A DNA stretch of 64,000 nucleotides from Candidatus Obscuribacteraceae bacterium (GTDB taxonomy: Bacteria > Cyanobacteriota > Vampirovibrionia > Obscuribacterales > Obscuribacteraceae), in assembly GCA_044226015.1 (NCBI GenBank), contig JBGAHS010000006.1, positions 224,001-288,000 on the forward strand, in the 5' to 3' direction. The position numbers and the translations under genes were made by a program. A model generated the notes under the pieces. The model saw nothing but the letters and a program-made list of their open reading frames with translations, searched no databases and was not told the origin of the DNA. Below, in pieces: positions 43,428 through 62,995 of this stretch (positions are counted from its first letter, which is position 1; each line of letters opens with the position of its first letter).

Positions 43428-44197
43428 TGCCTTGCAATCCACAAGTACTCCCATGTATTGCGGTAGAAAGTCTCACAGGATGCGCTGGCGAGTTGCTAGT
43501 GATTCTTGAGAATATGGACAAGCTCTTGCCCTTTGTACGTGTAGTTAGCTTTCCATTTGCCCAAAGTCATAATGAAAACCGTCCAGTAGACATCTCGTTC
43601 GTCGAAGGCAGCGTCAGCCAACCGCATGACCTTGAGAAGTTGAAGCGAATAAGAGCCAACTCTCGCTGGTTGGTTGCCGTGGGCAACTGCGCCGTCTGGG
43701 GATGCGTCCAGAAAGGAGCCTGCACCCATTGCAAAGCAGAGACCTTGATGCATTCTGTTTATGGTGAAGATTCGAAGATTGCCGTGATGGAAGCAACGCC
43801 GCTCGAAGAACACGTGCGGGTCGACGTCAAATTATCAGGCTGTCCGATTAACGCCACTCAGTTCCTTGCAATTACAGCAAACTTGTTGCGAGATCATCTG
43901 CCACTTATCACGCACAAACCAGTTTGCCTGGAATGCAAACTAAAAGAGAATCCATGTGTTTTAATTGAAGACAATCTTCCTTGCCTGGGTCCGGTGACTT
44001 CAGCTGGATGCGGTGCCTTGTGTCCGAGCGTGGGCGCGGCGTGCTATGGTTGCTGGGGTCCCTGCGAATCTCCACAAATGGATGCCATGGCGACAGTCTT
44101 AGAGGAAAAAGGCTATCATCTCGCCGAAGTAATGAGTCGATTGCACACATTTGGTGCACCAGAAGACATGTTCACACGAATGGTCAGGAAAAACTAA
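43427..44197 (+). CDS. Group 3b hydrogenase delta (small) subunit
   Basis: TGCAGE, VEGSV, AVGNCA..G, GCP, VC.EC, CLGPVT..GC.A.CP...C.GC.GP. Confidence 0.9.
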   Translation: MPCNPQVLPCIAVESLTGCAGELLVILENMDKLLPFVRVVSFPFAQSHNENRPVDISFVEGSVSQPHDLEKLKRIRANSRWLVAVGNCAVWGCVQKGACTHCKAETLMHSVYGEDSKIAVMEATPLEEHVRVDVKLSGCPINATQFLAITANLLRDHLPLITHKPVCLECKLKENPCVLIEDNLPCLGPVTSAGCGALCPSVGAACYGCWGPCESPQMDAMATVLEEKGYHLAEVMSRLHTFGAPEDMFTRMVRKN

Positions 44198-45510
44198 TGA
44201 GCGAGCAAGAGAAAAAAGTAATCGAAATTCCCGAGATTTCCCGAGTCGAAGGGCACTCCGCTGTGACTATTGACCTGGTTGATGGCAAAGTTTCAGAGGT
44301 GAAACTTGATGTCTTTGAAGGCACACGTTTTTTCGAAAAGATAGTGCTCGGGCACAAATATAGTGAGGTTATTCACATTACATCTCGCGTCTGCGCGATA
44401 TGTTCGACAGGGCATGTTATTGCGGCAGCGAACGCGGTCGAGAATGCTTTCGGAATAAAGCTATCAGAAAGAGCGTTGCTGCTCCGCGAATTAATGCATC
44501 TAGGCATGATCATCGAGTCCCACGCCACGCACATCTGCGCACTGGCTCTGCCAGACTTTGTGGGTGCTGGAACCCTATATGAATTAGCCTCTAAGCATGA
44601 AGCAGAATTCCAGATATGGACACAACTTCGTGCATTAGGAGCCGAGGTTCAAACTGTAGTTGGTGGGCGTCCATTCCATCCGGTCAATATTAAGGTCGGC
44701 GGATTCTCACGTTTTCCCGATGCAGCTGAGCTGAATGCACTTCTGCCAAAACTCGAAGAGGGCTTGCCTCTGGCAGAATCACTGGCTCACCTGCTTCTGA
44801 CCTTCAAGTTGCCCGTTGAGAAGACCGCGCCTGCAACTTTCGTAGCGCTGAAACCGCCTGGAGATATTTACGGTTATTTCGGAACCGAGGTTCAATCTAG
44901 CGATGATTGGAGCGCACCAATTAGCGAGTACAAGAAATACTTAAATGAAAAAGTGGTATCACATAGCCACGCCAAGCGTTCAATGATCAAAGACAAACCA
45001 ATAATGGTCGGTTCGCTTGCACGTCTTAGATTTTATGCCGATAGGTTGAAACCACGAGCGCGCGCAATTTATGTAAACACAGAAATTGCAAAAGGCAATT
45101 TCAACACCTTGCTCAACAATATTGCACAATCGATTGAGGTTGTCGAAGCCATTGAGCGAGCAAAAGAAGTTATTCAACTCATCGCGCAATCAAATGAGCA
45201 CGAGCATTCAGCGGAAGTAAAGATTCGCAGCACAGAAGGCGTGGGCGCCGTCGAGTGCCCGAGAGGAACGCTCTACCATTGCTACTCGTTTGATGAATCG
45301 GGAGCAGTCGTTGCAGCGGATATGATTACTCCTTCAGCACAAAATACGGCACGAATTGAACAAGACATAGCTTTCGTGGTCGACAACATTGGTCAACCAG
45401 AGGATGCGGTTCTTCAAGCAAGGTTAGAGACACTCGTTCGCGCCTACGACCCATGCAATACCTGCGCCACTCATATGGTCACAGTAAATCACAAAAGAAC
45501 ACAAGGATAA
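44197..45510 (+). CDS. Group 3b [NiFe]-hydrogenase alpha (large) subunit
   Basis: RVEGH, L1 SRVCAICSTGH, ECPRGTLYH, L2 RAYDPCNTCATH followed by a cleavable C-terminal extension. Confidence 0.95.
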   Translation: MSEQEKKVIEIPEISRVEGHSAVTIDLVDGKVSEVKLDVFEGTRFFEKIVLGHKYSEVIHITSRVCAICSTGHVIAAANAVENAFGIKLSERALLLRELMHLGMIIESHATHICALALPDFVGAGTLYELASKHEAEFQIWTQLRALGAEVQTVVGGRPFHPVNIKVGGFSRFPDAAELNALLPKLEEGLPLAESLAHLLLTFKLPVEKTAPATFVALKPPGDIYGYFGTEVQSSDDWSAPISEYKKYLNEKVVSHSHAKRSMIKDKPIMVGSLARLRFYADRLKPRARAIYVNTEIAKGNFNTLLNNIAQSIEVVEAIERAKEVIQLIAQSNEHEHSAEVKIRSTEGVGAVECPRGTLYHCYSFDESGAVVAADMITPSAQNTARIEQDIAFVVDNIGQPEDAVLQARLETLVRAYDPCNTCATHMVTVNHKRTQG

Positions 45511-45515
45511 GAGAG

Positions 45516-46832
45516 ATGAACACGCTTATGCGTTCCGATTGGTTGCAAGACTACAAATCTAAATTGTGTACAGCTGAAGAAGCTGTGCGCGTAATCAAAT
45601 CGGGAGATACCGTTTACATTCATTCGCACGCTGCATCTCCTGAACTACTCAAAGATGCGATGGTTAAGCGCGCTTCTGAATTGCGCGACGTGAAGATTCT
45701 TCATTTGATGACTCTGGGCAAGGCAGATTATGCAAAGCCTGAGTATCACGACAATTTTCGCATCAAGGCACTATTTATCGGTTCAAACATACGTAAAGCA
45801 GTCAACGAAGGACGAGCTGAATACATCCCAATATTCTTAAGCGAAATTCCTTATCTTATTGAATCAGGTGAGATGCCTGTTGATGTTTGCATGCTTCAGG
45901 TATCGCCACCAGATGCGCATGGGTATTGCAGCTATGGAGTCTCCGTAGATTGCTCAATTGCAGCACGAAAACGGGCGAAGATTGTAATTGCTCAGGTGAA
46001 TAAGAGGATGCCGCGCACTCTGGGACGCTCATTTGTCCATGTCAGCCGTCTGAATCACATTGTAGAAATGGACCAACCGTTGTTCGAGTTGCAAGCAGAA
46101 ATGCCTAGTGAAGACGAGTCTATCCTCGGTAAGTATGTTGCAGACCTCGTTGAGGATGAAGCCACAATTCAATTAGGAATTGGCACCATACCAAATGCAA
46201 TTCTGAAAGAACTCAAAAATAAAAAACGGTTAGGCGTTCACAGTGAAATGTTATCCGACGGCATTGTCGACCTCATTGATGCTGGAGTAATCACGAACGA
46301 GGCAAAGACGGTTTATCCAGGTAAAGTAGCGGTGAGCTTTGTTCTAGGCACGCAGAGGCTTTACGATTTCGTTGACAACAACCCACTCTTCGAATTTCAG
46401 CCATCTGACTTCATTAATGACCCTTTCACCATTTCTAGAAACCATAAGATGACTGCCATTAACTCAGCGCTTCAAGTGGACGTCACCGGACAGGTGGAAG
46501 CAGCGTCGATTGGCTCGTATTTGTACAGTGGTTTTGGAGGACAGGTCGACTTCATCAGAGGAGCAAGTCGGGCACGGCAGGGAAAAGCAATCATAGCGCT
46601 TCCTTCCACTGCCAAGAACGGCACTGTCTCACGAATTAAAGCCAGCCTTGTTCCTGGTGCAGGAGTAATCACAACAAGGGCTGATGTTCATTATGTTGTC
46701 ACCGAATATGGTGTCGCTCAGCTCTTCGGCAGAACACTTAAAGAGAGAGCCCGAGCAATGGTGGAAATAGCCCACCCTAAATTCAGAGAAAGTCTCGAAA
46801 AGGAAATCGCAGCATTCAAGTGGCTTCTTTAG
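45516..46832 (+). CDS. Acetyl-CoA hydrolase/transferase family protein (4-hydroxybutyrate/acetate CoA-transferase-like)
   Basis: QLGIG.IP, LGVHSEM, INSA.QVD.TGQ, SG.GGQVDF.RGA, VVTEYG, IAHP.FR. Confidence 0.92.
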   Translation: MNTLMRSDWLQDYKSKLCTAEEAVRVIKSGDTVYIHSHAASPELLKDAMVKRASELRDVKILHLMTLGKADYAKPEYHDNFRIKALFIGSNIRKAVNEGRAEYIPIFLSEIPYLIESGEMPVDVCMLQVSPPDAHGYCSYGVSVDCSIAARKRAKIVIAQVNKRMPRTLGRSFVHVSRLNHIVEMDQPLFELQAEMPSEDESILGKYVADLVEDEATIQLGIGTIPNAILKELKNKKRLGVHSEMLSDGIVDLIDAGVITNEAKTVYPGKVAVSFVLGTQRLYDFVDNNPLFEFQPSDFINDPFTISRNHKMTAINSALQVDVTGQVEAASIGSYLYSGFGGQVDFIRGASRARQGKAIIALPSTAKNGTVSRIKASLVPGAGVITTRADVHYVVTEYGVAQLFGRTLKERARAMVEIAHPKFRESLEKEIAAFKWLL

Positions 46833-46864
46833 CTGACAAGTAAATTTACTCTTGGCAAAATGGG

Positions 46865-46896
46865 ACCATGATCTTACAAAAATGTGAGATCATGGT
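46865..46896 (+). terminator. Stem-loop ending the hydrogenase/CoA-transferase transcript
   Basis: ACCATGATCTTACA-aaaa-TGTGAGATCATGGT followed by a T-rich stretch. Confidence 0.65.
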
Positions 46897-46996
46897 TCGG
46901 CTTTGTTTCATCTATTCGAGGCGAAGTAAGAGTTGGCGGCAGCTTAGCCGTCTCCTGCTTTCGCCACGTCGATCTAATGTTTGAAAGGCTTCACCA

Positions 46997-48622
46997 ATGT
47001 CACCATCAAAGAATTCCAGTTTACTACTGGCAATTTCCACAGTAATTGCACTAAGTTCCATCGTGCTATCAGCATCAGGGGCTGACAAGGAAGAAAGCGC
47101 AAGCTCAAGAAATAAGAAAGATGCAATAACTGAATTAGTGCTATCTGACGCAAAATCAATTCCACGCACACCTCTACAATTTTTGAAAAAGATCAAAGAT
47201 GCAGGGCTGAAGGTGAAATACCACATTGTTTCAAATGGTGGCATCCAAAACACTGAACGCGGTAGTTTCTCCTGCTTTGGCACAGTAAGCGGAAAACTGG
47301 GGAGCATCGAACTGGAAGATCAAGACTTCTCGTTTGGTATTTTTATAGAACCAGACAAAACCAAAGTACTCGAAGTACAAAACGACTTCGGCACCAAACT
47401 ATTGGTAGAGGTCATAGTTAAAGATTTCAATTCTGGTCAAAAGGACTTCTGGGAATTAATTGGCGAACCCGAAAAGAAAACGGCTAACTGGCATTTCAGA
47501 ACTAATACTGATGGTATATTCGCAGACACGGCTCGCTTGAATATGTGCGTTGAACCAAAGATGCCGGCGTCTCAGCTCTTCGGCAATGTATCTCGCTGCT
47601 CAGGCTGCCACACAAGCGGCGATATGGTCATGAAAGAATTAAATGGAGACCATAACGACTGGATGAAACCCGGTAAAGACAATGTCCAGGCAGCCATCGG
47701 AAATTTCAAGCTTGAAAGTGGAAGCGACGAAAATAGCACCAAGCAAGTCGCAAACATGATGTTTCATCAAGCACTTGAGCCTGAAGATTTAGCTGCAACT
47801 GTGCGAAAGAGTCTCAAATCAGCAGTAAGAGATGTTGCCTTCGCAAAAGCATCGCAGCTTTCAGACAAGCAGCGCCTTCGGAGCCTGCTTGCACCAATGG
47901 AAATGAATCTGGAGTCAGATAGTATTCCTTTTGCAACTCGAATACAGAAGGATGAAGCCATTGAAATACCATCAAAGTTTTTCGTGGACGAGAGAATCAC
48001 GGGGCATCAAGACCCAATTAAAGTTCCAGTAAAACTATATGCAAAGGTTCTAAATGAGTTAGGCTCAAGCTTTGCAGCTGATGAGACTAAAGGACTTTTG
48101 GAAACACAACATGCATTTCTCTTTCCTACGAGATCTGCAGCTGACGAAAACGCAATTGATGAGCTAATCAAGCAAGGAAAACTTGATCACGAAACGGAGA
48201 TTGCTTTATTGTCTGTCGATTGGACAACACCAATGTATTCGCGAAAGAGACAGGCTCTTATAGAGAAATTGCCAGACAAGATTGCAAATGCGACGACGCT
48301 TAAGCAAGCGCTCAAATCGGATTTAGCAAAATCAAGTCCTGCTGAAAAACAAAAGAGCGCTGCGATTCAATTCCTAAATCTCTGTCGTTCTAAGGCGTCT
48401 TCGCCTGAACACATCACAGCATGGGTTAAACTTGCAGCTCAGCGCAGGGTAGAGATTCAAGCGGCGCAAACATCCCAGAACAAGCGTGGCACTATCCTCG
48501 AAGGTGGACTAGGTCCTGGCGGATTCCGCAGAATTTTCCCGCAGTATAAGACACTCAATCCCAAACCTTACGAATTCACGCTTGACCCCAAAACCGCCCT
48601 GCTAAGCGCATCAGCAAAGTAA
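46997..48622 (+). CDS. Secreted protein with a single CxxCH haem-binding motif
   Basis: Hydrophobic signal peptide; SRCSGCHTSG...MKEL..DHNDW. Confidence 0.6.
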   Translation: MSPSKNSSLLLAISTVIALSSIVLSASGADKEESASSRNKKDAITELVLSDAKSIPRTPLQFLKKIKDAGLKVKYHIVSNGGIQNTERGSFSCFGTVSGKLGSIELEDQDFSFGIFIEPDKTKVLEVQNDFGTKLLVEVIVKDFNSGQKDFWELIGEPEKKTANWHFRTNTDGIFADTARLNMCVEPKMPASQLFGNVSRCSGCHTSGDMVMKELNGDHNDWMKPGKDNVQAAIGNFKLESGSDENSTKQVANMMFHQALEPEDLAATVRKSLKSAVRDVAFAKASQLSDKQRLRSLLAPMEMNLESDSIPFATRIQKDEAIEIPSKFFVDERITGHQDPIKVPVKLYAKVLNELGSSFAADETKGLLETQHAFLFPTRSAADENAIDELIKQGKLDHETEIALLSVDWTTPMYSRKRQALIEKLPDKIANATTLKQALKSDLAKSSPAEKQKSAAIQFLNLCRSKASSPEHITAWVKLAAQRRVEIQAAQTSQNKRGTILEGGLGPGGFRRIFPQYKTLNPKPYEFTLDPKTALLSASAK

Positions 48623-48768
48623 GGTACCTGGACAAGATTGCACTGGAAGCAACTTACCGACCAGTTGCCTGGTGAAATCTACAGCAAAAACCATCTATTT
48701 AACAAAAACGTCCCGATTTTGAGGTATGTTGGAGTAATAGGAGCTAATTGGTCACTCTGGGGTTGCTT

Positions 48769-49419
48769 ATGAATCGTCCTCATCTTCGCAAAATCCTGAT
48801 TGCTGGAACAGCACTACTGCTGAGCGGAATGGCAGCGTCAAGCTGCTTTGCCCAGGAAGGGGAATCGGATTCCGACCGCGCCGCCAGAGAGGAAGAGGCT
48901 CGCAAGCTCATGGAACAGAGCCAGATGTCACTTCCAGAGCTGATGAAAGCTGGTATTGCGCCCGATATGCCGTTGCCAGAAAGCCCATCAGAAGAGGAGA
49001 AACAACGACAAATCGGTGATTCTCAGGGTGGAAGACCTAGTTTTGGACCAGGCAATTATCCTGAAAGACAACAATATCGCCCGCCTACGAGATTCGATGC
49101 AATGCAGCCACAACAGCGCCCACCAGCAGGAGCAGCCTCGCCAGCACCGGGAGAGAGCACGCCTGAAGCATTTGCAGGGAGACAGCAGCAGAATGGTCAA
49201 CAAAATGCGCAGAAAGCAGCCACCCCTCCGCCGGTAGTACCGCAAGAACAGCGTTCTGCATTTTCAGCAGTTCCTCCAGATGAAAACTCAGATGGAATTG
49301 TGCAATTTCCAATTCTTCCGCCAAAGTTCCGCGGAGCCTACTTAAAAGAAGAGGAGCCAGCGGCACCAGCACCATCTGCCCCGGCTGAACCGCAGCAGTC
49401 CGTTACTGAAGGCTTCTAA
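48769..49419 (+). CDS. Secreted Pro/Gln-rich hypothetical protein
   Basis: Signal peptide ending SCFA; low-complexity body; start uncertain (48748 or 48769). Confidence 0.65.
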   Translation: MNRPHLRKILIAGTALLLSGMAASSCFAQEGESDSDRAAREEEARKLMEQSQMSLPELMKAGIAPDMPLPESPSEEEKQRQIGDSQGGRPSFGPGNYPERQQYRPPTRFDAMQPQQRPPAGAASPAPGESTPEAFAGRQQQNGQQNAQKAATPPPVVPQEQRSAFSAVPPDENSDGIVQFPILPPKFRGAYLKEEEPAAPAPSAPAEPQQSVTEGF

Positions 49420-49461
49420 ATTCGCAAGAAAAATAGCAGCGAAAAGAGGCAATCTAGAAAA

Positions 49462-49629
49462 ATGCTAGTGAAACTGAGAAAGCACAATCCAGTTGCGTGC
49501 CTATTACTGCTCGTACTTGCTATTATTTCCTGCGCTATATTCCTGAATTCCAAGGAAGCCTTCCTTGCTGGATACACAAACCGATGGATTAACGATGGAA
49601 GTATGGACGGCTTCAAATCCTCGAATTGA
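49462..49629 (+). CDS. Possible 55-aa single-TM small protein (below ORF-track cutoff)
   Basis: MLVKLRKHNPVACLLLLVLAIISCAIFLNSKEAFLAGYTNRWINDGSMDGFKSSN; basic N-terminus plus hydrophobic helix. Confidence 0.4.
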   Translation: MLVKLRKHNPVACLLLLVLAIISCAIFLNSKEAFLAGYTNRWINDGSMDGFKSSN

Positions 49630-49661
49630 GATAAGTATTTGAAACGTGTAAGGGAATGCCT

Positions 49662-49696
49662 AAAAAAAGAGAGCACTCCCTTAGGAATGCTCTCTT
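49662..49696 (-). terminator. Intrinsic terminator of the esterase gene
   Basis: AAGAGAGCA.TCC-ctta-GGA.TGCTCTCTT with an A7 run on + (U-tract on -). Confidence 0.75.
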
Positions 49697-49715
49697 GATT
49701 GATGATTCTGAAAAA

Positions 49716-50447
49716 CTAGTTCCAGTCTTGCGAATCTGGTCCACCAATGTACATCAGAACTTGTTGATGCCACCATGGCCAATCATGCGCAAAACCGTCC
49801 CACTCACGATATGCGTGCCAAACACCTTTGTTCCAGAGTGATTGCGAGAACTGACGGTTCTCTTCGATAGCTGGGTCTTCCTTGCCTATCGAAATAATCA
49901 AATCCATATTCTTGATTTGATCGAGCTTGCCGTTGTCTTGCCCGCGAATAAATTCAAAAGGATTTCCCTGATAAATGGCTTCATCATCGTAACCGCCAGT
50001 CCACTGGCGAATGTCATAGATGCCGCTCATTGAAATGACGCGGTTGAAATGTTCAGGAAAGCGCAAGCCGATGCTAGCTGCATGGTAAGCACCCATACTG
50101 GCTCCCATAGCCATTGCAAAGCCATTATCATTCTTCGATTTCGAGAATGGAATCACTTCATTGATAACATAATCATGGTATTGCAAGTGTCGAACAGCCT
50201 TATCGTGTGGCGAAGCCCAACCGTTGTCCCAGCTCTCAGGGTCTACGCTATCGATACTGTAAATCTGAATCCAACCGTTGTTGATGTGACGCGAGAGTGT
50301 GTCGAACATGCCACGGTTTTCCCAGTCAAAATATCGTCCTGACTGTGTAGGAAACACAAATACTCTTGCACCAGCGTGCCCGAAAACCAGTAACTCCATA
50401 TCGCGATTGAGGTGGTTGCTATGCCACTTGTGGTATTCCCTATGCAT
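49716..50447 (-). CDS. Putative esterase (alpha/beta hydrolase)
   Basis: GASMG nucleophile elbow; FGHAG..V..FPT..GR..DWE; HDWPWW. Confidence 0.85.
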   Translation of the reverse strand: MHREYHKWHSNHLNRDMELLVFGHAGARVFVFPTQSGRYFDWENRGMFDTLSRHINNGWIQIYSIDSVDPESWDNGWASPHDKAVRHLQYHDYVINEVIPFSKSKNDNGFAMAMGASMGAYHAASIGLRFPEHFNRVISMSGIYDIRQWTGGYDDEAIYQGNPFEFIRGQDNGKLDQIKNMDLIISIGKEDPAIEENRQFSQSLWNKGVWHAYREWDGFAHDWPWWHQQVLMYIGGPDSQDWN

Positions 50448-50813
50448 TATCTGTTCCTTTGTAGCCTACTTGGGACGAGTTGGAGATTGTACCATGCATG
50501 ATCAGAGCCCAATCCTAGTCAATAAGCCTGTATTGCAAACTTTTACGTTTAATCTCTGCCAAGCGACATCCACAAAGGGTCGACTGCTCGAAGTTTTGAC
50601 GCATCCTGGCTAAGCTTGCAGGATGTGTTTTAGAAGCAGGTTCCGCTTGGAATCACAGCCAACGGAGAAGATTTGCTGTAGAAAACTTCTAGGAGCATCG
50701 TCTTACAAACAAGGACAAGAGTATGAGTCTGCAATACGGAAAAAAGCGAGGTGGAAAGCTGCCAGGGAGTGCTCCTATCGCCGCAGGCAACTAAGAATAG
50801 TGAATGAGAATCG

Positions 50814-51974
50814 CTAATTTATGGAGTAATCAACCCACTGCGCTTCCGAAGCTTCTGGCACTTCAAGTTTGCTAAGCAACTTACCCAACACTCTCTCCGG
50901 CACCGTGCTTTCACGCTCGGCGTTTCGCCGAAACAATTCGCTAAAGGATTCTGGTTCAACATACACAATGCGAAATCGCGCTTTGTATGGTGCCATGAAT
51001 GAAATCAAAGTAGAGCGCAGAGAACTCGTGACGTTCGTTGCATTCCAAACGAAGTCGCTTCCGTTGCGCAAGTACTCCAGAGCCTTCTGTCGAGCTCTTG
51101 CGACGACAGCACCCTGCGAGTCTTCGGGGTCGATGTCTAATTCATCTCTGATTTCGTCGAGTGACACCACCGGTAATCCATGGCAGTTATCCTCGACCCA
51201 CGAGTCTTTTCCAGCCCCTGGCAGTCCAGACATTATTGTCACAATCAATCGCGAATCATCAAAAACATCGCGATCAGGAAGATTTGAATTGCTGTGAAAG
51301 TAATGAAATTTACTGTGCTCACTAGCAAACTCATAGGGCGATGAAGAGCATTTGTTCTCAGTACAAAATTCCTTGAACAGCTGCAATCGAGAATACAGAT
51401 CTTGCTTATCAGAACAATCACGTCCACCAATATCAGCTTCTGCAAGGACAGAGAGCCAATCTAAGCGAACAGACATACTTGCACGAATCACAGCTTTGAC
51501 GGGATCTTCCTTTTCGTAGAACCACATCGGAAGTCCGGAAAATCGGACTAATTTAGAAATTTGTTCTCTCAAACTGAACGGTGGGAAACTAAATTCATCT
51601 GATGTCCAAAGAATCTCACGCGCCATAGAAGTACCTATGCGTGTGTGCTTGAGAGATGTTATTTTGCCTTCGTGATCAATTTTCGTTGTGGCTGGCTTTG
51701 CAACATCGTGCAATAGCGCGGCAGCAAACACAACATTTCTAGGAGTTTCATCCAGCGATTGCCAGCTTTCAGAAGCAACAAGCGACTCGCATACGAGTTG
51801 CGTATGCTGAAACACATCACCTTCTGCATGGTGATGGGGATCTTGCAAGCAGCCTTTCATGGGCTTCATCCAAGAGCACTTTTCCAGCTTTTGCCACTGA
51901 ATTTTCTCGCCAGGTTTCGGACACAGACTAAAAGACCATTTATTTTGCATGGAACTATTATTCGAAGCGTTCAT
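50814..51974 (-). CDS. HD-domain phosphoesterase + P-loop polynucleotide kinase (HD-Pnk-like end-healing enzyme)
   Basis: Q...HH.EGDV..HT, LLHDVAK, AD..GR; C-terminal GLPGAGKDS P-loop, LDEIR, VWNATN, RRN..R lid. Confidence 0.82.
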   Translation of the reverse strand: MNASNNSSMQNKWSFSLCPKPGEKIQWQKLEKCSWMKPMKGCLQDPHHHAEGDVFQHTQLVCESLVASESWQSLDETPRNVVFAAALLHDVAKPATTKIDHEGKITSLKHTRIGTSMAREILWTSDEFSFPPFSLREQISKLVRFSGLPMWFYEKEDPVKAVIRASMSVRLDWLSVLAEADIGGRDCSDKQDLYSRLQLFKEFCTENKCSSSPYEFASEHSKFHYFHSNSNLPDRDVFDDSRLIVTIMSGLPGAGKDSWVEDNCHGLPVVSLDEIRDELDIDPEDSQGAVVARARQKALEYLRNGSDFVWNATNVTSSLRSTLISFMAPYKARFRIVYVEPESFSELFRRNAERESTVPERVLGKLLSKLEVPEASEAQWVDYSIN

Positions 51975-51975
51975 C

Positions 51976-52755
51976 TCAAAATATGCTTGTCTCCGCGCTT
52001 AACTTATTGGGAATTATCGGTCTATCTAACCAATGAGATTCGGACTCGACAACAGTGCTTAAGAAGCTTTTTCGAACGAGTTTATAGCGCTCAATTACCG
52101 AACCATTTTCTTCAACCTTGATGTAGAGCCCTTCCATATCGAGGGAAGAATCAGTCTCTCTCAAAGCTATTTCCGACGACAATGAATGACTTTTGCAATA
52201 ACTCAGAAGATCATCCACGTGATTTGCCGAAATGAAACGAGACTTTCCCAGCAAGCTCAACAATGATTTGTGATCACTAAAAGCGCCTGTTGAAAGCACT
52301 TTCACAGAACGAACGCAGCTTCCTGCAAAAATCTTCTCTCTTCTTTCAGTAGATAGAAAGGTTCGGGTTTCGCGATCATAAACATCAAATTCTAGCCAAT
52401 AGTGCGGCAATTCATTGTAATAAACAGTGTGTTTAGCATACAGCCACTCACCGTATGCGATGAATCGACTACCAAGCAATTCCCTCAATTCATTCGCATG
52501 AGTGTTCGCCCACTGCTTGAACAGGTTGAAATGCTTCTCTCTCTCCCCTCCTGTAAGGAAGTGCCCACGACTCTGCAAGAAGAGAGTTCCATCTTGGTCA
52601 AAGCTTAGCGCAGAATTCGCACCATCCATTTTTTCCTCAACCACCAAATGGCGTCCCCTAATCTGTGAAAAAGGAACGCTATCGAGGTCTTCGTCGCCAG
52701 GCTGAAATCGCGAGCCCTGAATATGGTGAGTACGAGGGTACTTGATCAGCTGCAT
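51976..52755 (-). CDS. ATP-dependent RNA ligase-family nucleotidyltransferase
   Basis: KYPRT.H, motif I EEKMDGAN, QSRG, YGEW, FDVYD, EGLYIK, RYK; adenylation domain only, no OB-fold. Confidence 0.85.
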   Translation of the reverse strand: MQLIKYPRTHHIQGSRFQPGDEDLDSVPFSQIRGRHLVVEEKMDGANSALSFDQDGTLFLQSRGHFLTGGEREKHFNLFKQWANTHANELRELLGSRFIAYGEWLYAKHTVYYNELPHYWLEFDVYDRETRTFLSTERREKIFAGSCVRSVKVLSTGAFSDHKSLLSLLGKSRFISANHVDDLLSYCKSHSLSSEIALRETDSSLDMEGLYIKVEENGSVIERYKLVRKSFLSTVVESESHWLDRPIIPNKLSAETSIF

Positions 52756-52757
52756 AA

Positions 52758-53456
52758 CTATGGTGAGACGTACTTTGTTGCCACTGCAATGAGGTGGTTC
52801 AAAACGCCTTGAAATCGGGGCTTAGCGCCAGCGTCAGAAATCATCGTCTGCAGAGCTTTCTTATCTAACAAATGAATATGCTCAGGGTTATCATCTTCAG
52901 ATGATGGAACCGAAATAATGATGTTGCGGCGACTCACCCGCACGGCCTCTTTGATTGCTTTGGCTGGGTCTTTCATGTGCTCGAGAACTTCAAGCAACGT
53001 CACCACGTCGAAGGATTTATCAGGGAACGGAAGAGACCGGGCATCACCCTTGATGGCATCAAGTCTAACGATGCCGCCTTTATGAACAGCCAACATGTCG
53101 TCAACACGGTCTTCTCTCAAATCCATGCACGTTACATCTAACCTTTGAAATTCGGTCAAAAGCGGCCAGACGAAGACGCCTCTGCCGGAACCGATGTCCA
53201 ACAAATTGCTGGGAGCTAAGCCTTTCAAGACTCCAAGCACGCGTTGTACACGAGCTAACTCCATCGTACGCTTGAATTTGTGGAGTTTTAGCCCAGACTG
53301 AGTGCCCAAATTGAAGAGTGTATTGCGTTCAGCCGAACTGAGCATTGCTAACGGTTTGGAGAAGATTTCGGGATCTGCCTCATTAGTGCCGAGCTTGCCG
53401 CGAACAAATGCTGCCGCAAGTTCCATGTGATAACGATCTTCAAGTTGTGTTTCCAC
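52758..53456 (-). CDS. Class I SAM-dependent methyltransferase, first gene of the ligase/HD-Pnk operon
   Basis: LDIGSGRG, GDA..LPF.D.SFDVVT.LEVLEH, ISVP....NPEH.H; 2 nt from the ligase start. Confidence 0.85.
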   Translation of the reverse strand: METQLEDRYHMELAAAFVRGKLGTNEADPEIFSKPLAMLSSAERNTLFNLGTQSGLKLHKFKRTMELARVQRVLGVLKGLAPSNLLDIGSGRGVFVWPLLTEFQRLDVTCMDLREDRVDDMLAVHKGGIVRLDAIKGDARSLPFPDKSFDVVTLLEVLEHMKDPAKAIKEAVRVSRRNIIISVPSSEDDNPEHIHLLDKKALQTMISDAGAKPRFQGVLNHLIAVATKYVSP

Positions 53457-53634
53457 GTAACAAAATCCCTAGATGCCAACTGCTGCTTAAATGAATTGAA
53501 CACATTATCGGGCGCTTTGTGCTGCATACGGTCCCGAAATCATATATTATCTTTAATCTCCTTCGGCAGGCGCAGCCATGCATGAGTCCCAGGTTTCAAG
53601 ATAAATTGATGAAAGTTGATGAGAGGTATGCCCA

Positions 53635-55851
53635 GTGACTAGCCCAAGACCGCATCGAATTCGAGTCAGAAAACGAACACGACAGGTGGCACCTGGGGCT
53701 GAGGCGAATAGTGAGATCACTCCTTTGAGGTTGAATGATCCCGCTTTGTACATCAACAGAGAGTTGAGCCTTCTTGCATTTCAAAAAAGAGTCTTGGAAG
53801 AAGCACAGGATGAGACTAATCCGCTGCTTGAGCGCTTCAAATTTTTGTCAATTCTTGGCTCTAATCTCGACGAATTTTTCATGGTTCGCGTTGCTGGACT
53901 GAAGCGACAACTAGAATCTGGAGCGGTCCCAGCACTGCCAGATGGCATGACTCCCGCAGCGCAGCTCGCGTCCATCCGAACTGACGTTACAAATCTCTTG
54001 CATACATCTTATGCTTGCTTGTCGCAACAGTTGTGGCCGGCGTTAAAAGAAGAAGGCATACAAATACTACAGTACTCTGAGTTGAATGCTCGACAGAAAG
54101 CCAAAGCCAGAGAGTATTTCATCCACACTGTTTTTCCTGTGTTGACGCCACTTGCGTTCGACCCGGGCAGACCGTTTCCGCATATTTCGAACCTCAGTTT
54201 GAACCTGGCAGTATTAATCAAAGACCAGAGTGAGAATGAACGTTTTGCGCGAATCAAAATTCCTGATACTCTGCCGCAGTTAATTCCTCTGGACAAACTG
54301 ACTGCCGTTCCAAGTGGTGGCAAGCGTAATGATGCTGACAAAAAAGCGCGCTGTTTTGTTTGGCTGGAAGATTTGATTGCAGCCAATCTGCAAGACCTGT
54401 TTCCAGGTATGGAAATCATTGATGCACATCCTTTCCACATAACAAGAAACGCTGAACTCGCAATTCAAGAACTTGAGGCAGGCGACTTACTCGAAACAAC
54501 GGAAGAAGGACTCAGACAGCGAAGATTTGGTGACGTAGTTAGACTTAAGGTCAACTGCTCGATGCCAGTCAACATTCTGCAAATCCTAGTCAATAATCTG
54601 GAAATTGATCTCGACGATGTCTATCACGTCGAGGGAATGCTCAGCCTCAACAGATTGAGATACATCGGCAGCCTTGATCGCCCTGACCTGAAGTACACGC
54701 CATTTACGCCGCTTGTTCCAGGCAGCTTGTACTCGGAGAATCGCGAATTCGACATTTTCGCCTCAATTCGCCAACGCGATATTCTTTTGCATCATCCGTA
54801 CGATTCGTTCCAGCCGGTCATCGACTTTCTGCGCGCAGCGGCCCGTGACCCTGACGTGCTCGCAATAAAAATGACTCTGTATCGAGCTGGAAGAAACTCG
54901 CCAGTGGTAGAAGCTTTGCTCGACGCAATGGAAAATGAAAAGCAAGTTGCAGTACTGGTTGAGCTCAAAGCTCGGTTTGACGAAGAAAGTAATATTGAAT
55001 GGGCCAGAGCACTTGAAGCTGAAGGCGTCCACGTTGTTTATGGATTGCTGGGGCTGAAGGTACACTCGAAGATTGCACTTGTAGTACGAAGAGAGGGTGA
55101 TACCATTCGGCGTTATGTACATTTGGGCACAGGCAACTACAATCCGCTGACGTCGCACTTCTACACAGACATTGGCTTGTTTACTTGTGATGAAGAAATT
55201 GGTGCCGATGCAACAGACCTCTTCAATTATCTAACTGGCTATTCTGCAAAAACAGATTATCAAAAGTTGGCAATTGCACCAATCAATCTGCGCCAGCGCT
55301 TGGAAGCAATAATAAAGCGCGAAATAAGACATCAGCAACATGGTGAGCGAGGTCATCTCATCTTCAAGATGAATGCTCTGGTCGATCAAGAAATGATTGA
55401 AATGCTCTATGAAGCATCACGAGAAGGCGTGCAAATCGACTTGCTGGTTCGCGGAATATGTTGTTTGCGCCCCGGTATTCCAGGTGTCAGCGAGAACATC
55501 AGAGTTATTAGTGTTCTTGGAAGATTCCTCGAACACAGCCGCATCTATTACTGCCGAAATGGTGGCAAGGAAGAAATATACATGGGTAGTGCGGATATAA
55601 TGCCTCGAAATCTCAACAGAAGAGTCGAAGTCATTTATCCTCTGGAAGATCAGAAGCTTATCAGACAAGTTCGCGACGACATTCTACATACCTACCTTTC
55701 GGATCGCGTCAAAGCACGCGAAATGAAAGCAGATGGAAGCTATATTCGTATGGCAGCAAAACCATCCGAAAAGCGCATCAACGCACAGGCAGACTTTATT
55801 GCCCGGCGTTTAGCTGAGCAAGATAGTCGTCCAGAAAGAGCTGAGGATTAG
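53635..55851 (+). CDS. ppk1: Polyphosphate kinase 1
   Basis: NRELS.L.F..RVL, SNLDEFFMVRVAG, LHHPYDSF, ELKARFDE, KVHSK, HLGTGNYN, RFLEHSR. Confidence 0.97.
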   Translation: MTSPRPHRIRVRKRTRQVAPGAEANSEITPLRLNDPALYINRELSLLAFQKRVLEEAQDETNPLLERFKFLSILGSNLDEFFMVRVAGLKRQLESGAVPALPDGMTPAAQLASIRTDVTNLLHTSYACLSQQLWPALKEEGIQILQYSELNARQKAKAREYFIHTVFPVLTPLAFDPGRPFPHISNLSLNLAVLIKDQSENERFARIKIPDTLPQLIPLDKLTAVPSGGKRNDADKKARCFVWLEDLIAANLQDLFPGMEIIDAHPFHITRNAELAIQELEAGDLLETTEEGLRQRRFGDVVRLKVNCSMPVNILQILVNNLEIDLDDVYHVEGMLSLNRLRYIGSLDRPDLKYTPFTPLVPGSLYSENREFDIFASIRQRDILLHHPYDSFQPVIDFLRAAARDPDVLAIKMTLYRAGRNSPVVEALLDAMENEKQVAVLVELKARFDEESNIEWARALEAEGVHVVYGLLGLKVHSKIALVVRREGDTIRRYVHLGTGNYNPLTSHFYTDIGLFTCDEEIGADATDLFNYLTGYSAKTDYQKLAIAPINLRQRLEAIIKREIRHQQHGERGHLIFKMNALVDQEMIEMLYEASREGVQIDLLVRGICCLRPGIPGVSENIRVISVLGRFLEHSRIYYCRNGGKEEIYMGSADIMPRNLNRRVEVIYPLEDQKLIRQVRDDILHTYLSDRVKAREMKADGSYIRMAAKPSEKRINAQADFIARRLAEQDSRPERAED

Positions 55852-55890
55852 TCAACTTTGCTCTAGTAATCAGAGTCCATACATTCACCA

Positions 55891-55923
55891 TAGAGGCTTG
55901 TTTCATTCTGAAGCAAGCCTCTA
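55891..55923. terminator. Stem-loop between convergent ppk1 and the immunity-like gene
   Basis: TAGAGGCTTGTTTCA-ttc-TGAAGCAAGCCTCTA. Confidence 0.6.
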
Positions 55924-55963
55924 GGAATTTGCATCCAAACCAATTGAGCTTACCTGACTCAGC

Positions 55964-56545
55964 TTATAATGTTTCAGATCGGAGAAATTCCTCATACGCT
56001 GGCGTCTTTTCTGTTTTGCAACCGCTCAAAGACTCAAGCGACTCTGTTCCTTGTGCGTTTTCGGCTTTGAGAAGTCCAGACCTCACACCAATTAATGTAT
56101 GCACATCGTTGAACAACGAACCATCCGATTTGGATAGTAGAAGCTCCTGCCGCAATTTGTCATAGCCTGACTTGTCTAAAACAAAGTTACTCTCGACGTC
56201 ACTCCACGCCTCTGCAGGTGGTGGCTCAAGTCCATTTTTGTGTTTCAGCAAACCGATTCTGTACAATGCAAAATTTCTTGTTTCGGAGATGATCTTCTTG
56301 CAAGCGTCATCCTTCACATATCCAAGTACATAGTCTGCCAGGGCTACTGTCACCCGGTCATTGGTAAGTGATTCAGCCATTCCAACTAACAGCTTTGCTG
56401 CACGATCATTTTTTGAATCCATCACTAGCGAATGGTACAGCAGTCTCAAGCAGCTACTTTCCATATCAGCTTGGGTCCATATTTCATTGGCAATTGTTGC
56501 TGCTTCATCGGCGTTCAAATCACCGATTGATTTGGTTTTGTTCAT
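55964..56545 (-). CDS. Hypothetical protein, candidate immunity protein
   Basis: RBS GGGAG; starts 22 nt after the large toxin-like gene; no motif recognised. Confidence 0.55.
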   Translation of the reverse strand: MNKTKSIGDLNADEAATIANEIWTQADMESSCLRLLYHSLVMDSKNDRAAKLLVGMAESLTNDRVTVALADYVLGYVKDDACKKIISETRNFALYRIGLLKHKNGLEPPPAEAWSDVESNFVLDKSGYDKLRQELLLSKSDGSLFNDVHTLIGVRSGLLKAENAQGTESLESLSGCKTEKTPAYEEFLRSETL

Positions 56546-56567
56546 CTCGTCTCCCGCTTAAAACAGT

Positions 56568-58964
56568 CTATCGCCCCTGATAATTTGGAATACCTTGCCC
56601 ATGAAACTTTGTTCTTAGAGATCTAATTGAGCTATCAATCACACGCTTCCAATTATCATAACCAAGTTTTTCAAGTTCTTTGCCAAAACGCCATAACTCA
56701 TACGCCATTACAGTAGGATCATGGTGTGTATCAGACGACGGCAAAGGCGTCTCTAGTATATTCAGTTTTGACTTAGTACTTATGGTTTTTCCGATAATTT
56801 CAGCGAGTTCATTTTCTCTTTGCAAATCAAGTATTTTGGCAGCCTCCAGCCTGGTAAGAGAGGGATTTGCCGCTCTAAGGCGCGAATTCAAGTTGTCACG
56901 TGTCACGTCATCGGCAACGCCTATAACCAGATGCTTGCGCTCAATTGGCACATTCTTATCAGGAAACTCTAAGCTTGAATTTGACACGCGTGAATCTACA
57001 AGTTTTCCGTTTCGCAAGCCCAATGTTTTTTCGGTTACATCTATGGGATACATTTCACCCGTACTCTTATTAACGAGCAGTACGTCGCAACCTGCCATAT
57101 CGGCAGCATTTTCACCAGGCATTGGAAGGGCAATCCAGTCTTTAGCTCGCTCAGGACTTACTCCATTAGCCTTCAAGGCTGCCTGGAAGTGGGGATTTTT
57201 GTCGAGTCCCTTATCGAAGAGGGACTTCAATGAATTGCTCACCTCTCGCTGTGTACCGCTGCCTGAACGAGTTTCGATTGAACGATCTAGCCCCCCACTG
57301 CTGCGTCCATCCCAGCCATACTGTTTTACCAGTTTCTCTTTCACAACATCGTATAACGTGTCTTCTGCAGCGTAGTACTTTTCCAGAAGCTTTTCTTCTT
57401 CAGTAGCGCGATGTGCGTCTGGCTTTAGCTCAATATTCTTAGCTTCAGACCTGAGTTTTTCCACTTCATTTCTCAAATCGCCCAGTTGTTTTTCGAACTT
57501 TTTCTCAACTCGTGCCAATGCCTCAGCCTGCTCGAAGTTTTTGACTTGCAGGTTCTTCCGCATGTCCAAAAGTTCTTTGTTCATCTGACTGAGACCTTCT
57601 AAATTCTCAAGTACAGGTGTTTTCGCAAGATTATCAACGTCTCCAGCGAGCTTCGAGAACGATATCTCAGGAACCCGTCCTCTAGCGGCACCACCTGTTG
57701 TCTTCAAAATCTTTGACTCAGCACCTTCCTTGGCCGACATGGCTAGGAAACCATCATTCGGAATTCCAGCAAACGCAAGCTTCCTTTGACCGCCTCCATT
57801 TGCAAGCACAGCTAAGGCGTCCCAACATTCATCTCCCAGGGTTTTGAGTGATTTTGCGACGGACGAGAAATTGATCTGCTTCAAACATGCTTCTGTTTCC
57901 TCTCGGATTGCTGTTCCAAGTGTTGAACCTTCAGGAAGTCCAACACCTCCAGTAGCCAGGGTAAACGCAGCTTTATAGCAATCGGGACCCAATATTGATT
58001 TGCTCTTGTCGGCAAAATTTAGGAGTTCCTCATTGCTGCAATTTTTTAGCTTATCGTTCATATAGGCTAATTTTGCATTTCTCTCTCTGTGCTCAGGCGA
58101 ATTGAGCTGATCGTTCGTTAAAAGAGTTATGCCCCCGACCAGCGCTGAAGCCAATATGGCAGGATGAGCCTTCTCCAAGATAGCACCAATTGCGGTGCCT
58201 GCAAGAAAATTGCTGCTACCTTCATGAACAGTTTGTGCCGTGTTCTTCGTAACTTGCTTGTGCGCTTCATCAGCAGCTCCAAACATAGGAGCGATTCCGA
58301 ATACAATTAGCTGTTTGCCAACTAGCCTGGCGTTGTCAGCGCCAATGAATTTACAAAGATCGGGACCAAGCAAGAGAGCCGAGGTTGCGGTCCCCATGTC
58401 TCCTTTGGCTATCTTGAGTGCTGCTATATTCTCTTTGCCAAACCTTTTTTCAGCACCGTCTATCAACGTGTTAGTGGCGGTATCGATTTTCGCCAGACGC
58501 TCTGCCTTCGAATTTTTCTGAGCAGCATCTTCAATTTGTCCGGTCTTCATATCGCCAGACTTATGTCCATCATGATTTATCAGTTCAGCTTTGACGTTTA
58601 GACTTACTTGGGGCAAAGTGCCACGCTCAGAAGACTGTTGCTTTGCCAGAGCTTGTGGTGAAACTTCCTTTTGCCGCTCAATCTTGATATTTGAATGCTT
58701 GTTATCAGAGTGAACTTGCGAATCAGCGCCTTTAGAGAAGAGTTCAGCCGCAGAAACGAACTTACCATGCTTATCACCAGCACCTGTGATGCCACTCTTT
58801 CCGCTTTCACGCTGATGCTTTCGTTGTTGCTTTACTTGTTCACTCAGATCTTTGAACCCAACCGTAGCTTCGGAACGCTCTTTCGACTCTAAGTTCACTC
58901 TATTGTGACTCTCAGCTTTAACTGACTGATGTTCTGCACACTTGTGATTGCCTTCGTTTAACAT
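56568..58964 (-). CDS. Large protein with hydrophobic Gly/Ala region, coiled coil and a C-terminal PD-(D/E)XK-like domain (candidate polymorphic toxin)
   Basis: C-terminal AD.AG.DVLLVN..TGE.YPIDVT resembles a restriction-endonuclease-fold active site; start uncertain (58964 or 59021). Confidence 0.55.
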   Translation of the reverse strand: MLNEGNHKCAEHQSVKAESHNRVNLESKERSEATVGFKDLSEQVKQQRKHQRESGKSGITGAGDKHGKFVSAAELFSKGADSQVHSDNKHSNIKIERQKEVSPQALAKQQSSERGTLPQVSLNVKAELINHDGHKSGDMKTGQIEDAAQKNSKAERLAKIDTATNTLIDGAEKRFGKENIAALKIAKGDMGTATSALLLGPDLCKFIGADNARLVGKQLIVFGIAPMFGAADEAHKQVTKNTAQTVHEGSSNFLAGTAIGAILEKAHPAILASALVGGITLLTNDQLNSPEHRERNAKLAYMNDKLKNCSNEELLNFADKSKSILGPDCYKAAFTLATGGVGLPEGSTLGTAIREETEACLKQINFSSVAKSLKTLGDECWDALAVLANGGGQRKLAFAGIPNDGFLAMSAKEGAESKILKTTGGAARGRVPEISFSKLAGDVDNLAKTPVLENLEGLSQMNKELLDMRKNLQVKNFEQAEALARVEKKFEKQLGDLRNEVEKLRSEAKNIELKPDAHRATEEEKLLEKYYAAEDTLYDVVKEKLVKQYGWDGRSSGGLDRSIETRSGSGTQREVSNSLKSLFDKGLDKNPHFQAALKANGVSPERAKDWIALPMPGENAADMAGCDVLLVNKSTGEMYPIDVTEKTLGLRNGKLVDSRVSNSSLEFPDKNVPIERKHLVIGVADDVTRDNLNSRLRAANPSLTRLEAAKILDLQRENELAEIIGKTISTKSKLNILETPLPSSDTHHDPTVMAYELWRFGKELEKLGYDNWKRVIDSSIRSLRTKFHGQGIPNYQGR

Positions 58965-59159
58965 GGGTTCGTTACCACACTTGAGTAGACGCGAGATGCT
59001 CGAGCCAGGTGGAAGGAACAAATAAATGAACAGCGTCGCTGATCATCGTAACTGCAATCAATACTAGTAAGTCTTTGACCAGTAAATTGCTTCCACCAGT
59101 AAACGAATTATCGCGACCGAGTCTGAAATTTCCTTGAAAGTTAGAAAAAGGACGAAAAT

Positions 59160-59942
59160 TTAGTTCATCCAATCCATATCAGCGATGCGATCAGCCCTCT
59201 CCAGTGCTTGAGAAGCCTTTTCCTTAAACCCTTCGTCCACCAATCTCAGTCCCCGCACGGCAAGGGCACGAACAAAGGAATTGCCACTGCCTGCATCTTT
59301 GACATAAACCAAGTCTGCTTTGGACTCCTGTGGATACGGAGAAAATACACGCCAGAAGCCACAAAACGCACGCGTCTCGAGTTGTTTTGGTTTAGAAAAC
59401 GCAAGATCCATAAGGGTGGTCATAGGCAAATTTCCGCGCAAAAATTGCAACACGGGGTAAGGCCAATCTTTGTTTTTTATCTTGTTGTCGACCGCGTTTG
59501 CTAGAAATGCGTTCGCCTCTTCAAGGCTGCTCTGCTTCACTTTGAGCGCATACATGAAGTAAACACTGACGCAATCCCACTCATTAGAGTCGAGTGACTT
59601 TTGAAGGTCTTTCAGCGCTGCATCAAAATTACCATCTATCATGTATGCCAGTGCGCGGGTGCGCAGGATGATTCTGTCTTTTGGTCCAATCCCAATAGCT
59701 TTGTGCAAATCTTTGAAAGCCCGTTCGTCCTGTGACTGAAGCAGGTAAATTGTGGCTCTCGCGACAAGAGCAGATGCGCATTTCGGATTGCGCTTCAAAA
59801 TATTGTTGTAGACGCCCAAAGCAGCATCGATTTTGCCAGACTGTTCGTACAAATTTCCGAGAGCCAGAAGGACATTGTCGACGGGGTTTTCTTTGACTTT
59901 GTTTTTCTGGGCAATCGGCTCGGTAATAGTTTTTGGACTCAT
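59160..59942 (-). CDS. TPR-repeat protein (NlpI-like C-terminal part)
   Basis: TPR repeats (LG.LY...GK.D.A...Y...L..NP); DWPYPV..FL.G motif. Confidence 0.75.
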   Translation of the reverse strand: MSPKTITEPIAQKNKVKENPVDNVLLALGNLYEQSGKIDAALGVYNNILKRNPKCASALVARATIYLLQSQDERAFKDLHKAIGIGPKDRIILRTRALAYMIDGNFDAALKDLQKSLDSNEWDCVSVYFMYALKVKQSSLEEANAFLANAVDNKIKNKDWPYPVLQFLRGNLPMTTLMDLAFSKPKQLETRAFCGFWRVFSPYPQESKADLVYVKDAGSGNSFVRALAVRGLRLVDEGFKEKASQALERADRIADMDWMN

Positions 59943-60361
59943 GACCCATACCTCGACGCGCCACTTCACATCCCTAATTTCATTATAGGTTCGAGTCCTG
60001 AATTCGTACAGAGAGGGTCCAGGGGGTCCAAATCGATGGAACAGTTACAACACAAGCACAAATGGCAAGATGGAGTGAAATCGCGGAATTTTCCCAAGTT
60101 GAATTTACAATCAAAAAAAATGCCCATGCACCTAAATAATTGAGCACAGGCTGTCGGCGAGCTATTTGTGAGCTAAGGGAATCTGACACTGCAGAGACCC
60201 ATTGCAAAATTTGAATTCTAGAACTTTGTTGGCTTAAGAGCCTATCTAGTAATACGGACGGGCATACAGAGCCGCAATCCGTTATTGAATTTTTCTGTGA
60301 CAGTAGAACAAGTTTGACTCTCAATCCAGAAACAGTAGTACCGCATCAGGACCAAGTAGAA

Positions 60362-60433
60362 CTAAACCAACTCGCGAACTACCAAACCGGTTGCCGCTGC
60401 TGCTGCCATTGCTGCCATCGCTAAAAGTAACAT
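60362..60433 (-). CDS. 23-aa hydrophobic small peptide MLLLAMAAMAAAAATGLVVRELV
   Basis: Strong RBS AGAGGAG upstream of the ATG; isolated in a long intergenic region. Confidence 0.5.
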   Translation of the reverse strand: MLLLAMAAMAAAAATGLVVRELV

Positions 60434-60619
60434 CGAAAACTCTCCTCTCTACGTCTATGAAAAACTAGACGAAGAAGTTTCGGTTTTTATCCTGCAATTT
60501 CAGAAATTTAATGATACCGCCAGTGGTTGCCAAGTGATTCCGTACTTTTCAATCAGTTAGCAAGTCACCATCTGTGGTGCACATGTTGCGCAACGAAGTA
60601 TGCTTCGAAAGTGAGGGAT

Positions 60620-61840: not shown

Positions 61841-61857
61841 TTCAAATTTCCCCTTCT

Positions 61858-62751: not shown

Positions 62752-62769
62752 TGTTCCTCCAGATGTATT

Positions 62770-62816
62770 AAAAGAAAAATCCCGAACCCTTCCATTTCTT
62801 GGGGGAGTTCGGGACT
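62770..62816 (-). terminator. Attenuator terminator 2 (proximal to aroF)
   Basis: Minus strand TCCCGAACTCCCCC...GAAGGGTTCGGGA followed by TTTTTCTTTT. Confidence 0.85.
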
Positions 62817-62844
62817 TTGTAGTGGTGATTTGGACACGACTATG

Positions 62845-62898: not shown

Positions 62899-62927
62899 TT
62901 TGCTCGACCTTTGATGAATTTGCCCTC

Positions 62928-62960: not shown

Positions 62961-62995
62961 CACCTTTGCTAATCTCGCTCGCGTCACTACGCGGC

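Follow-up and report, generated by a model that had tools for sequence, protein, structure and literature searches.

A conserved methyltransferase–ligase–HD-Pnk operon in Candidatus Obscuribacteraceae as a candidate RNA end-repair system

A methyltransferase gene, a ligase gene and a gene for an HD-Pnk stand almost end to end in the genome of Candidatus Obscuribacteraceae bacterium, which raises the question of whether the three proteins act together on broken RNA and, if so, what is methylated. The locus lies in the window, the stretch of 64,000 nucleotides (nt) that was analysed (contig JBGAHS010000006.1, positions 224,001–288,000; assembly GCA_044226015.1). An earlier note on this DNA had described a methyltransferase, a ligase adenylation domain with a KMDG motif and an HD/P-loop kinase encoded by three neighbouring genes, and had read them as a system to heal, seal and protect RNA. 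The arrangement was confirmed by the open reading frames (ORFs) and their Pfam matches: all three are on the minus strand in the same orientation, with 2 nt between the methyltransferase and ligase genes and 1 nt between the ligase gene and that for HD-Pnk immediately downstream. The trio probably serves RNA end repair of some kind. In gene order, with window coordinates, its members are the following.

52758–53456, minus strand: class I S-adenosylmethionine (SAM) methyltransferase, GTG start, 232 amino acids (aa); Methyltransf_11, E 9.7e-18 (Pfam)
51976–52755, minus strand: stand-alone ATP-dependent ligase adenylation domain, 259 aa; RNA_ligase PF09414, E 1e-33 (Pfam)
50814–51974, minus strand: HD-Pnk, 386 aa; HD, E 1e-4, and AAA_33, E 1.6e-18 (Pfam)

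Conservation of the trio

Genomes in GTDB were scanned with an alignment of the methyltransferase, and the best 80 of 450 candidate loci were used, with counts that lean to close homologues. Such a neighbourhood survey had been set beforehand as a test able to refute the earlier note, and the methyltransferase was found to be kept beside the ligase/HD-Pnk pair, 64 of the 80 loci having all three genes in this order. Where 2.1 kb or more of DNA was available downstream (68 loci), all three were present in 60, and the trio was contiguous in 55 of 80. In 70 loci the distance from the methyltransferase to the start of the downstream ligase gene was at most 250 nt. Ligase matches occurred in 74 loci (73 from the same family; the one in L077 is a distant HNH-ligase) and HD-Pnk in 65, with both present in 64. 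Overlaps of 4 nt between gene pairs were common. Because the ligase lies so close in most loci and the ordered trio recurs so often, the arrangement is not a product of chance. For the five loci without an adjacent family ligase, the genome had one elsewhere in three cases, only a distant ligase in one and none in one.

Record titles of the trio loci cover about 10 phyla, including Chloroflexota, Planctomycetota, Acidobacteriota, Bacteroidota, Myxococcota and Cyanobacteriota, some of these titles possibly being misassigned. The methyltransferase family comprises 247 representatives at E ≤ 1e-30 in a library at 50% identity, and the nearest named homologues in the GTDB scan come from Candidatus Obscuribacterales. 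No family member was found in IMG/VR that would point to a phage origin (16 loci, best E 4e-12, 25–36% identity), and no plasmid match at E ≤ 1e-15.

Clustering of the neighbours, which were not scanned with Tpt1 or HIT models, revealed no fourth conserved gene family in the 80 loci, and no conserved biosynthetic genes were seen near the methyltransferase in them. Occasional neighbours include genes of RNA-repair type. Two loci (L043 and L050) have a stand-alone Rnl2-type gene between the ligase and HD-Pnk genes, and an RlaP nucleotidyltransferase is found at L008:7580–8311. At L077:6001–8342 a family methyltransferase lies upstream of an HNH–RNA ligase fusion from a different ligase branch, in a locus with no HD-Pnk. 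Roles in RNA repair are reported for RlaP and HNH-Rnl2 (PMC7824862; here and below, statements with a PMC number refer to the parts of those sources that were available). Other occasional neighbours were a nucleoside 2-deoxyribosyltransferase-like gene (L016:7904–8512; L018 has an ORF resembling it) and, close to five loci from Chloroflexota (L043, L049, L050, L023 and L032), a DSP/PTP phosphatase family.

Fusions of the methyltransferase to RNA ligases

The profile of the methyltransferase was run at E ≤ 1e-20 against proteins of 448–2000 aa, with scoring confined to the 7991 best word-sharing candidates. All 48 longer homologues matched contained PF09414. In 44 of them (P0127–P0170) an Rnl2-type ligase precedes the methyltransferase, and in the other four the methyltransferase precedes a small ligase (one clean, three probably frameshift artefacts). 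The Rnl2-type partners, which belong to a second ligase family unrelated to the small ligase, retain recognisable ligase motifs. In L075 (4996–6633) an Rnl2–methyltransferase fusion gene stands directly upstream of the ligase and HD-Pnk genes. These fusions are the strongest sign that the methyltransferase acts on RNA ends, and the Rnl2–methyltransferase protein is a candidate for sealing and methylating in one chain, although the 44 may go back to a single fusion event and so count as one line of evidence. No HIT fusion of a family methyltransferase was found among the 48 longer homologues or 12 longer representatives.

The ligase and HD-Pnk

The ligase consists of the adenylation core alone, with no further domain in its 259 aa. 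K42 of the KMDG motif, E103, E208 and K225 are invariant in a 52-row alignment, as are all nucleotidyltransferase motif residues. The predicted structure (predicted local distance difference test, pLDDT, 93.8) was compared with known structures by VIA, in which NgrRnl came first (Z 16.7, root mean square deviation 3.0, 191 residues aligned), followed by T4 Rnl2 (Z 15.4) and REL1 (Z 14.2), the best clear DNA ligase scoring Z 11.5. RNA ligases also fill the first 24 ranks among the Foldseek matches listed. As modelled, the ligase has an RNA-ligase-like fold, closer to RNA than to DNA ligases. Its adenylation fold is thus closest to those of NgrRnl and T4 Rnl2, whereas the accessory domains of Rnl2 and Rnl5 are absent: neither an Rnl2 C-terminal nor an Rnl5 N-terminal domain is present in the 259 aa, no TIGR02307 or PF18043 match (the Rnl2 signature) was obtained for the window ligase, and pairwise comparison with DraRnl was not significant (E 0.2). 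Homologues are found in Deinococcus radiodurans, with 25% identity between the ligase and its distant relative DR_B0100 (E 1e-9) and 27% between HD-Pnk and DR_B0098 (E 7e-19).

HD-Pnk is formed by an N-terminal HD phosphoesterase domain fused to a C-terminal P-loop kinase domain. Kinase residues G250–K256, D273, R276 and R354 are retained, as are seven residues of the HD site (H57, H89, D90, K93, H110, D181 and R185). Together with the conservation of the trio and the 48 of 48 fusions to RNA ligases, the RNA-ligase-like fold supports the heal-and-seal part of the earlier note.

The methyltransferase and its likeness to Hen1

The methyltransferase has a SAM motif D87-x-G89-x-G91-x-G93, conserved basic residues K62, R69 and R92, and a helical N-terminal extension (about residues 1–60) that is specific to the family (AlphaFold2 pLDDT 94). 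Its EVLEH...P...N..H motif, which the earlier note had likened to the metal-binding site of Hen1, is present as described and corresponds to E156, E159, H160, P184, N190 and H193. Across 149 representatives the residues for SAM and the predicted metal show high conservation, with E156, E159, H160 and H193 all kept in 110 of 133 scorable representatives, as judged from sequence positions and not from geometry. A profile-based alignment with bacterial Hen1 (98% probability) places R69, E156, E159, H160, P184 and the pair E192-H193 on the conserved Arg, ExxEH, Pro and DH of Hen1; in plant HEN1, four ligands are reported to hold Mg along with the hydroxyls at 2' and 3' (PMC10781085). Human HENMT1 has the same spacing as that of F61, K62, R69, P82 and D87 here (F-K-x6-R-x12-P-x4-D). 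The 18-residue distance from R69 to D87 recurs in bacterial and human Hen1 and in 87 of 95 representatives, and the F-K is in register, without the PP of the eukaryotic FXPP. An Arg before motif I is found also in 5 of the 19 class I motif-I ORFs of this genome; both Arg and ExxEH occur only in the methyltransferase and the genome's own Hen1. A fair reading of these residues is a putative metal-dependent O-methyltransferase suited to a vicinal diol, and the gene context likely supplies that diol as a healed 3' RNA end.

One divergent family member of 328 aa (P0306), encoded on a single 1.7-kb contig, has a low-complexity insert and a Cys-rich tail.

Proposed mechanism

The model that we consider to have about an even chance of being correct is one in which the trio heals, 2'-O-methylates and then seals RNA, with activities predicted from linkage, fusions, residues and folds. 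By homology to DR_B0098 and the Runella enzyme, the kinase half of HD-Pnk would phosphorylate a 5'-OH and the HD half would remove a 2',3'-phosphate to leave a 2',3'-diol. This diol would be bound by the methyltransferase through a metal at E156, E159, H160 and H193, as in Hen1, and a methyl group would be passed from SAM to the 2'-OH of the 3'-terminal ribose. The ligase would then be adenylated at K42 and join the ends; with no domain beyond the core, it probably needs its operon partners for substrate binding. The 2'-O-methyl joint would resist being cut again by transesterifying RNases, as is established for Hen1 systems and carried over here by analogy. A bolder proposal, held tentatively and at less than even chances, is that the methyltransferases form another family of RNA 2'-O-methyltransferases beside Hen1, recruited on its own: a 'mini-Hen1' that lacks the ligase-activating half and has been attached to two unrelated kinds of RNA ligase, DR_B0100-type and Rnl2, so that repair would bring immunity, and that the small ligase, which has been silent in all published assays, seals RNA only within a three-protein machine.

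Evidence weighing against the model

A number of results weigh against this mechanism, the first of them concerning the protective step. The score against TIGR04074 (bacterial Hen1) is 25.2 bits, for a cut-off of 340, and the match covers profile positions 259–397 of 462. The N-terminal ligase-activating domain of Hen1 is absent from the 232-aa protein, which has about 60 residues before its Rossmann core. With the family profile the genome's Hen1 comes third; with the Hen1 profile the methyltransferase comes fourth, on a par with methyltransferases unrelated to it. An Arg-His found 2–4 residues before the DH in 9 of 9 Hen1 rows has no counterpart, the family having D189-N190 instead; a 12-residue insert of Hen1 is also missing. 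A quick tree, into which 15 of the 24 family rows selected were entered, placed the family and Hen1 in separate clades (support 90 and 100, respectively), with deep branches unresolved. ExxEH with a distal His was found in one of three UbiG-like proteins and in three phage methyltransferases, the latter carrying both the Arg and the ExxEH marks; because of these carriers the motif does not specify RNA. Since the N-terminal domain is lacking, the score falls far below the cut-off, the clades are separate and UbiG shares the motif, the methyltransferase is not a member of Hen1. The reading in the earlier note was supported in part, and its protective step, Hen1-like 2'-O-methylation, stays a prediction: four metal positions align with Hen1, whereas membership of Hen1 fails, the motif recurs in UbiG and phage proteins and the fold matches are generic. 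The model has a class I fold, and its top Foldseek and VIA matches are tied among many generic methyltransferases, small-molecule ones leading; Hen1 is not listed among these top matches, which excludes nothing.

The phage methyltransferases in question form a family of their own (IMG/VR loci L157–L172, DVGTGRGE motif), a distant relative that was weakly grouped with the family in the quick tree and has three members with ExxEH.

Further points of the same kind concern the other two enzymes. Position 146 of the HD domain, which the earlier note had not mentioned, is Ser in the window copy; of 59 homologues, 46 have His there and 13 have Ser. The equivalent His is reported to be needed in the Runella enzyme, and the phosphoesterase of the window HD-Pnk may be weak or altered. 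With the HD step possibly weakened in this way, phosphoesterase activity could be supplied by the separate Pnkp of the genome. The Deinococcus ligase DR_B0100 is reported to form a ligase-AMP adduct yet to have joined neither DNA nor RNA (PMC1997131), and the Runella ligase likewise to self-adenylate and to have sealed nothing in vitro (PMC6097658). A review reports DNA ligase activity for DR_B0100 with DR_B0098 and PprA, radiation induction of the Deinococcus operon and radiation sensitivity of its mutants (PMC6300522).

The methyltransferase is also dispensable for the wider ligase family. A reverse survey was started from the ligase, with relatives and evenly drawn phylum samples (two of them overlapping), omitting the centre genomes, one weak broken match and one fragment split between contigs. 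Among ligases sharing at least 50% identity, 10 of 14 had a methyltransferase no farther than 1.5 kb away; of those below 50%, 0 of 30 did. Pairs of ligase and HD-Pnk without a nearby methyltransferase were seen on plasmids of Sphaerospermopsis, Pseudomonas and Variovorax and in Deinococcus operons. Of 200 Myxococcota genomes sampled, two that were not centre genomes contained the methyltransferase, and each of these also had a close ligase. From the contrast between close and distant ligases, and from the pairs that lack it, it follows that the methyltransferase is an extra component, joined to a single clade of the wider ligase/HD-Pnk pair; it is rarely found without that ligase. A role as universal activator of such ligases was rejected, given its absence near the 30 distant ligases, in Deinococcus and beside the Pseudomonas and Variovorax pairs.

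Finally, the genome already has a Hen1–Pnkp operon. A canonical Hen1 gene (C11:169060–170436, locus L096) scores 696 bits, above the cut-off, and is followed by an 861-codon Pnkp-type ORF with kinase and calcineurin-like domains in the part scanned, so that two RNA-repair systems, Hen1–Pnkp and the trio, are predicted in one genome. Hen1 was found in 2 of 10 other cassette-bearing genomes searched; most cassette genomes are therefore without a detected Hen1. Tpt1 is encoded on another contig (C10:317103–317600).

Alternative explanations

The alternative that survives best keeps the RNA-end module and changes the target or purpose of the methyl group, which might go to a 3'-O or phosphate cap or to a base near the break, or the ligase product might itself be an adenylated (AppRNA) cap instead of a sealed joint. 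Linkage and fusion to RNA ligases indicate RNA ends but not which atom, and the missing Hen1 Arg-His, the related small ligases that only self-adenylate in vitro, and Ser146 in the 13 HD domains, by which a clean diol is perhaps not always made, all lean this way. The four conserved Hen1-type metal positions suit a vicinal diol, however, and the Rnl2-type fusion partners keep their ligase motifs; overall, we rate this explanation as unlikely.

Repair of DNA or RNA:DNA nicks under genotoxic or oxidative stress, as proposed for DR_B0098–DR_B0100, with the methyltransferase as an accessory, is improbable. It draws on the homology to both Deinococcus proteins, on the radiation phenotype and PprA-dependent DNA ligation reported in PMC6300522, and on the title of the closest fold, NgrRnl, as a nick-sealing RNA ligase. 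Identity to the Deinococcus pair is just 25–27%, however, both fold searches place RNA ligases above DNA ligases, the fusion partner of the methyltransferase is an Rnl2-type RNA ligase, and DNA offers no 2'-OH to a Hen1-type site.

The least probable of the three is that the methyltransferase, linked for reasons of regulation, has a partner protein or a small molecule as its main substrate, whether to activate or regulate the ligase or in O-methylation of a sugar or catechol in the manner of UbiG or MftM. Small-molecule methyltransferases lead its fold matches, and the NCBIfam model that fits it best, the oligosaccharide methyltransferase MftM, gives 80 bits for a cut-off of 200, far enough below for membership to be rejected; a search of Chloroflexota yielded no true MftM with which to compare it. 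The N-terminal half of Hen1, which is reported to activate the Pnkp ligase, sets a precedent for a non-catalytic role (PMC4411300). Against this stand the high conservation of the SAM and predicted metal residues, the lack of conserved biosynthetic genes at the 80 loci, and the fusion to an unrelated second ligase family, which is better explained by a common substrate than by a single protein partner.

An anti-phage system was dismissed, PADLOC having given only a generic methyltransferase match (mad2). The action against ribotoxins or anti-phage RNases suggested in the earlier note found no direct support either: there was no PADLOC match to the ligase or HD-Pnk and no conserved toxin neighbour, and the Deinococcus relative has been connected with radiation resistance.

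Relation to known repair systems

RNA end repair by healing, methylating and sealing, as modelled here, has known counterparts in Pnkp–Hen1 and Pnkp1–Rnl–Hen1, which share a predicted 5' kinase, 2',3' phosphoesterase, ligase and methyltransferase with ExxEH...H (PMC4411300). The phosphoesterase there is calcineurin-like or HAD, whereas that of the window operon is HD; the window ligase is of another branch (VIA Z 8.7 for Pnkp-C and 7.9 for Rnl, against 16.7 for NgrRnl); and the methyltransferase lacks the N-terminal half of Hen1 and forms its own clade. By analogy, the trio would work like Pnkp–Hen1 without being a member of that system.

The ligase/HD-Pnk pair is already published. In D. radiodurans (DR_B0100/DR_B0099/DR_B0098) the likeness lies in the small ligase domain and HD-Pnk, and the Runella slithyformis cluster of Tpt1, MTase-HIT, ligase and HD-Pnk genes already includes a methyltransferase: as reported, the ligase is directly upstream of HD-Pnk and a predicted SAM methyltransferase is upstream of the ligase (PMC6097658). 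In Runella, however, where the MTase-HIT was compared by description only, the methyltransferase is fused to HIT, follows Tpt1 and is 152 nt from the ligase (PMC6097658), whereas that of the window is a single enzyme 2 nt from its ligase, with neither Tpt1 nor MTase-HIT genes beside the ligase/HD-Pnk pair. A literature search found no description of the methyltransferase family or the Rnl2 fusion; the RNA-repair survey of Burroughs and Aravind (2016) may already describe the neighbourhood.

If the model holds, a third architecture of methyl-protected RNA repair would have arisen and would be present across many bacterial phyla, and its source would be a methyltransferase family now labelled generic or UbiE-like. 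It would also give a way into an old puzzle, namely that ligases of the DR_B0100 and Runella type self-adenylate and alone sealed no tested substrate; the coupled three-gene version and the natural ligase–methyltransferase fusions lie ready for such tests. Use as an RNA tool is conceivable both for a compact 3'-end 2'-O-methyltransferase and for an Rnl2–methyltransferase fusion.

Surroundings of the operon in the window

By Pfam, the operon is flanked by an esterase gene and a polyphosphate kinase gene, both unrelated to the trio. Its GC content (0.461) equals that of the window (0.462), and recent transfer was rejected on these grounds; this rejection is qualified by the patchy occurrence of the ligase among relatives (5 of 60 genomes, one of the five being a weak broken match). 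An Rfam scan of window positions 44000–64000 found no RNA, and promoter and terminator scans gave results at or below chance.

Elsewhere in the window, an 817-aa ORF (56568–59021) and, directly downstream, a 193-aa ORF (55964–56545), both on the minus strand, are without a Pfam match. Their large/small layout and a C-terminal D...E.Y.IDVT.K stretch may hint at a nuclease toxin–immunity pair. A NiFe hydrogenase operon occupies 41534–46832, with the large subunit identified by Pfam and the other subunits and a following CoA-transferase-like gene recognised by eye. The interval 60620–62751 holds a gene for a chorismate mutase–prephenate dehydrogenase fusion beside a divergent gene that by eye appears to be DAHP-synthase-like.

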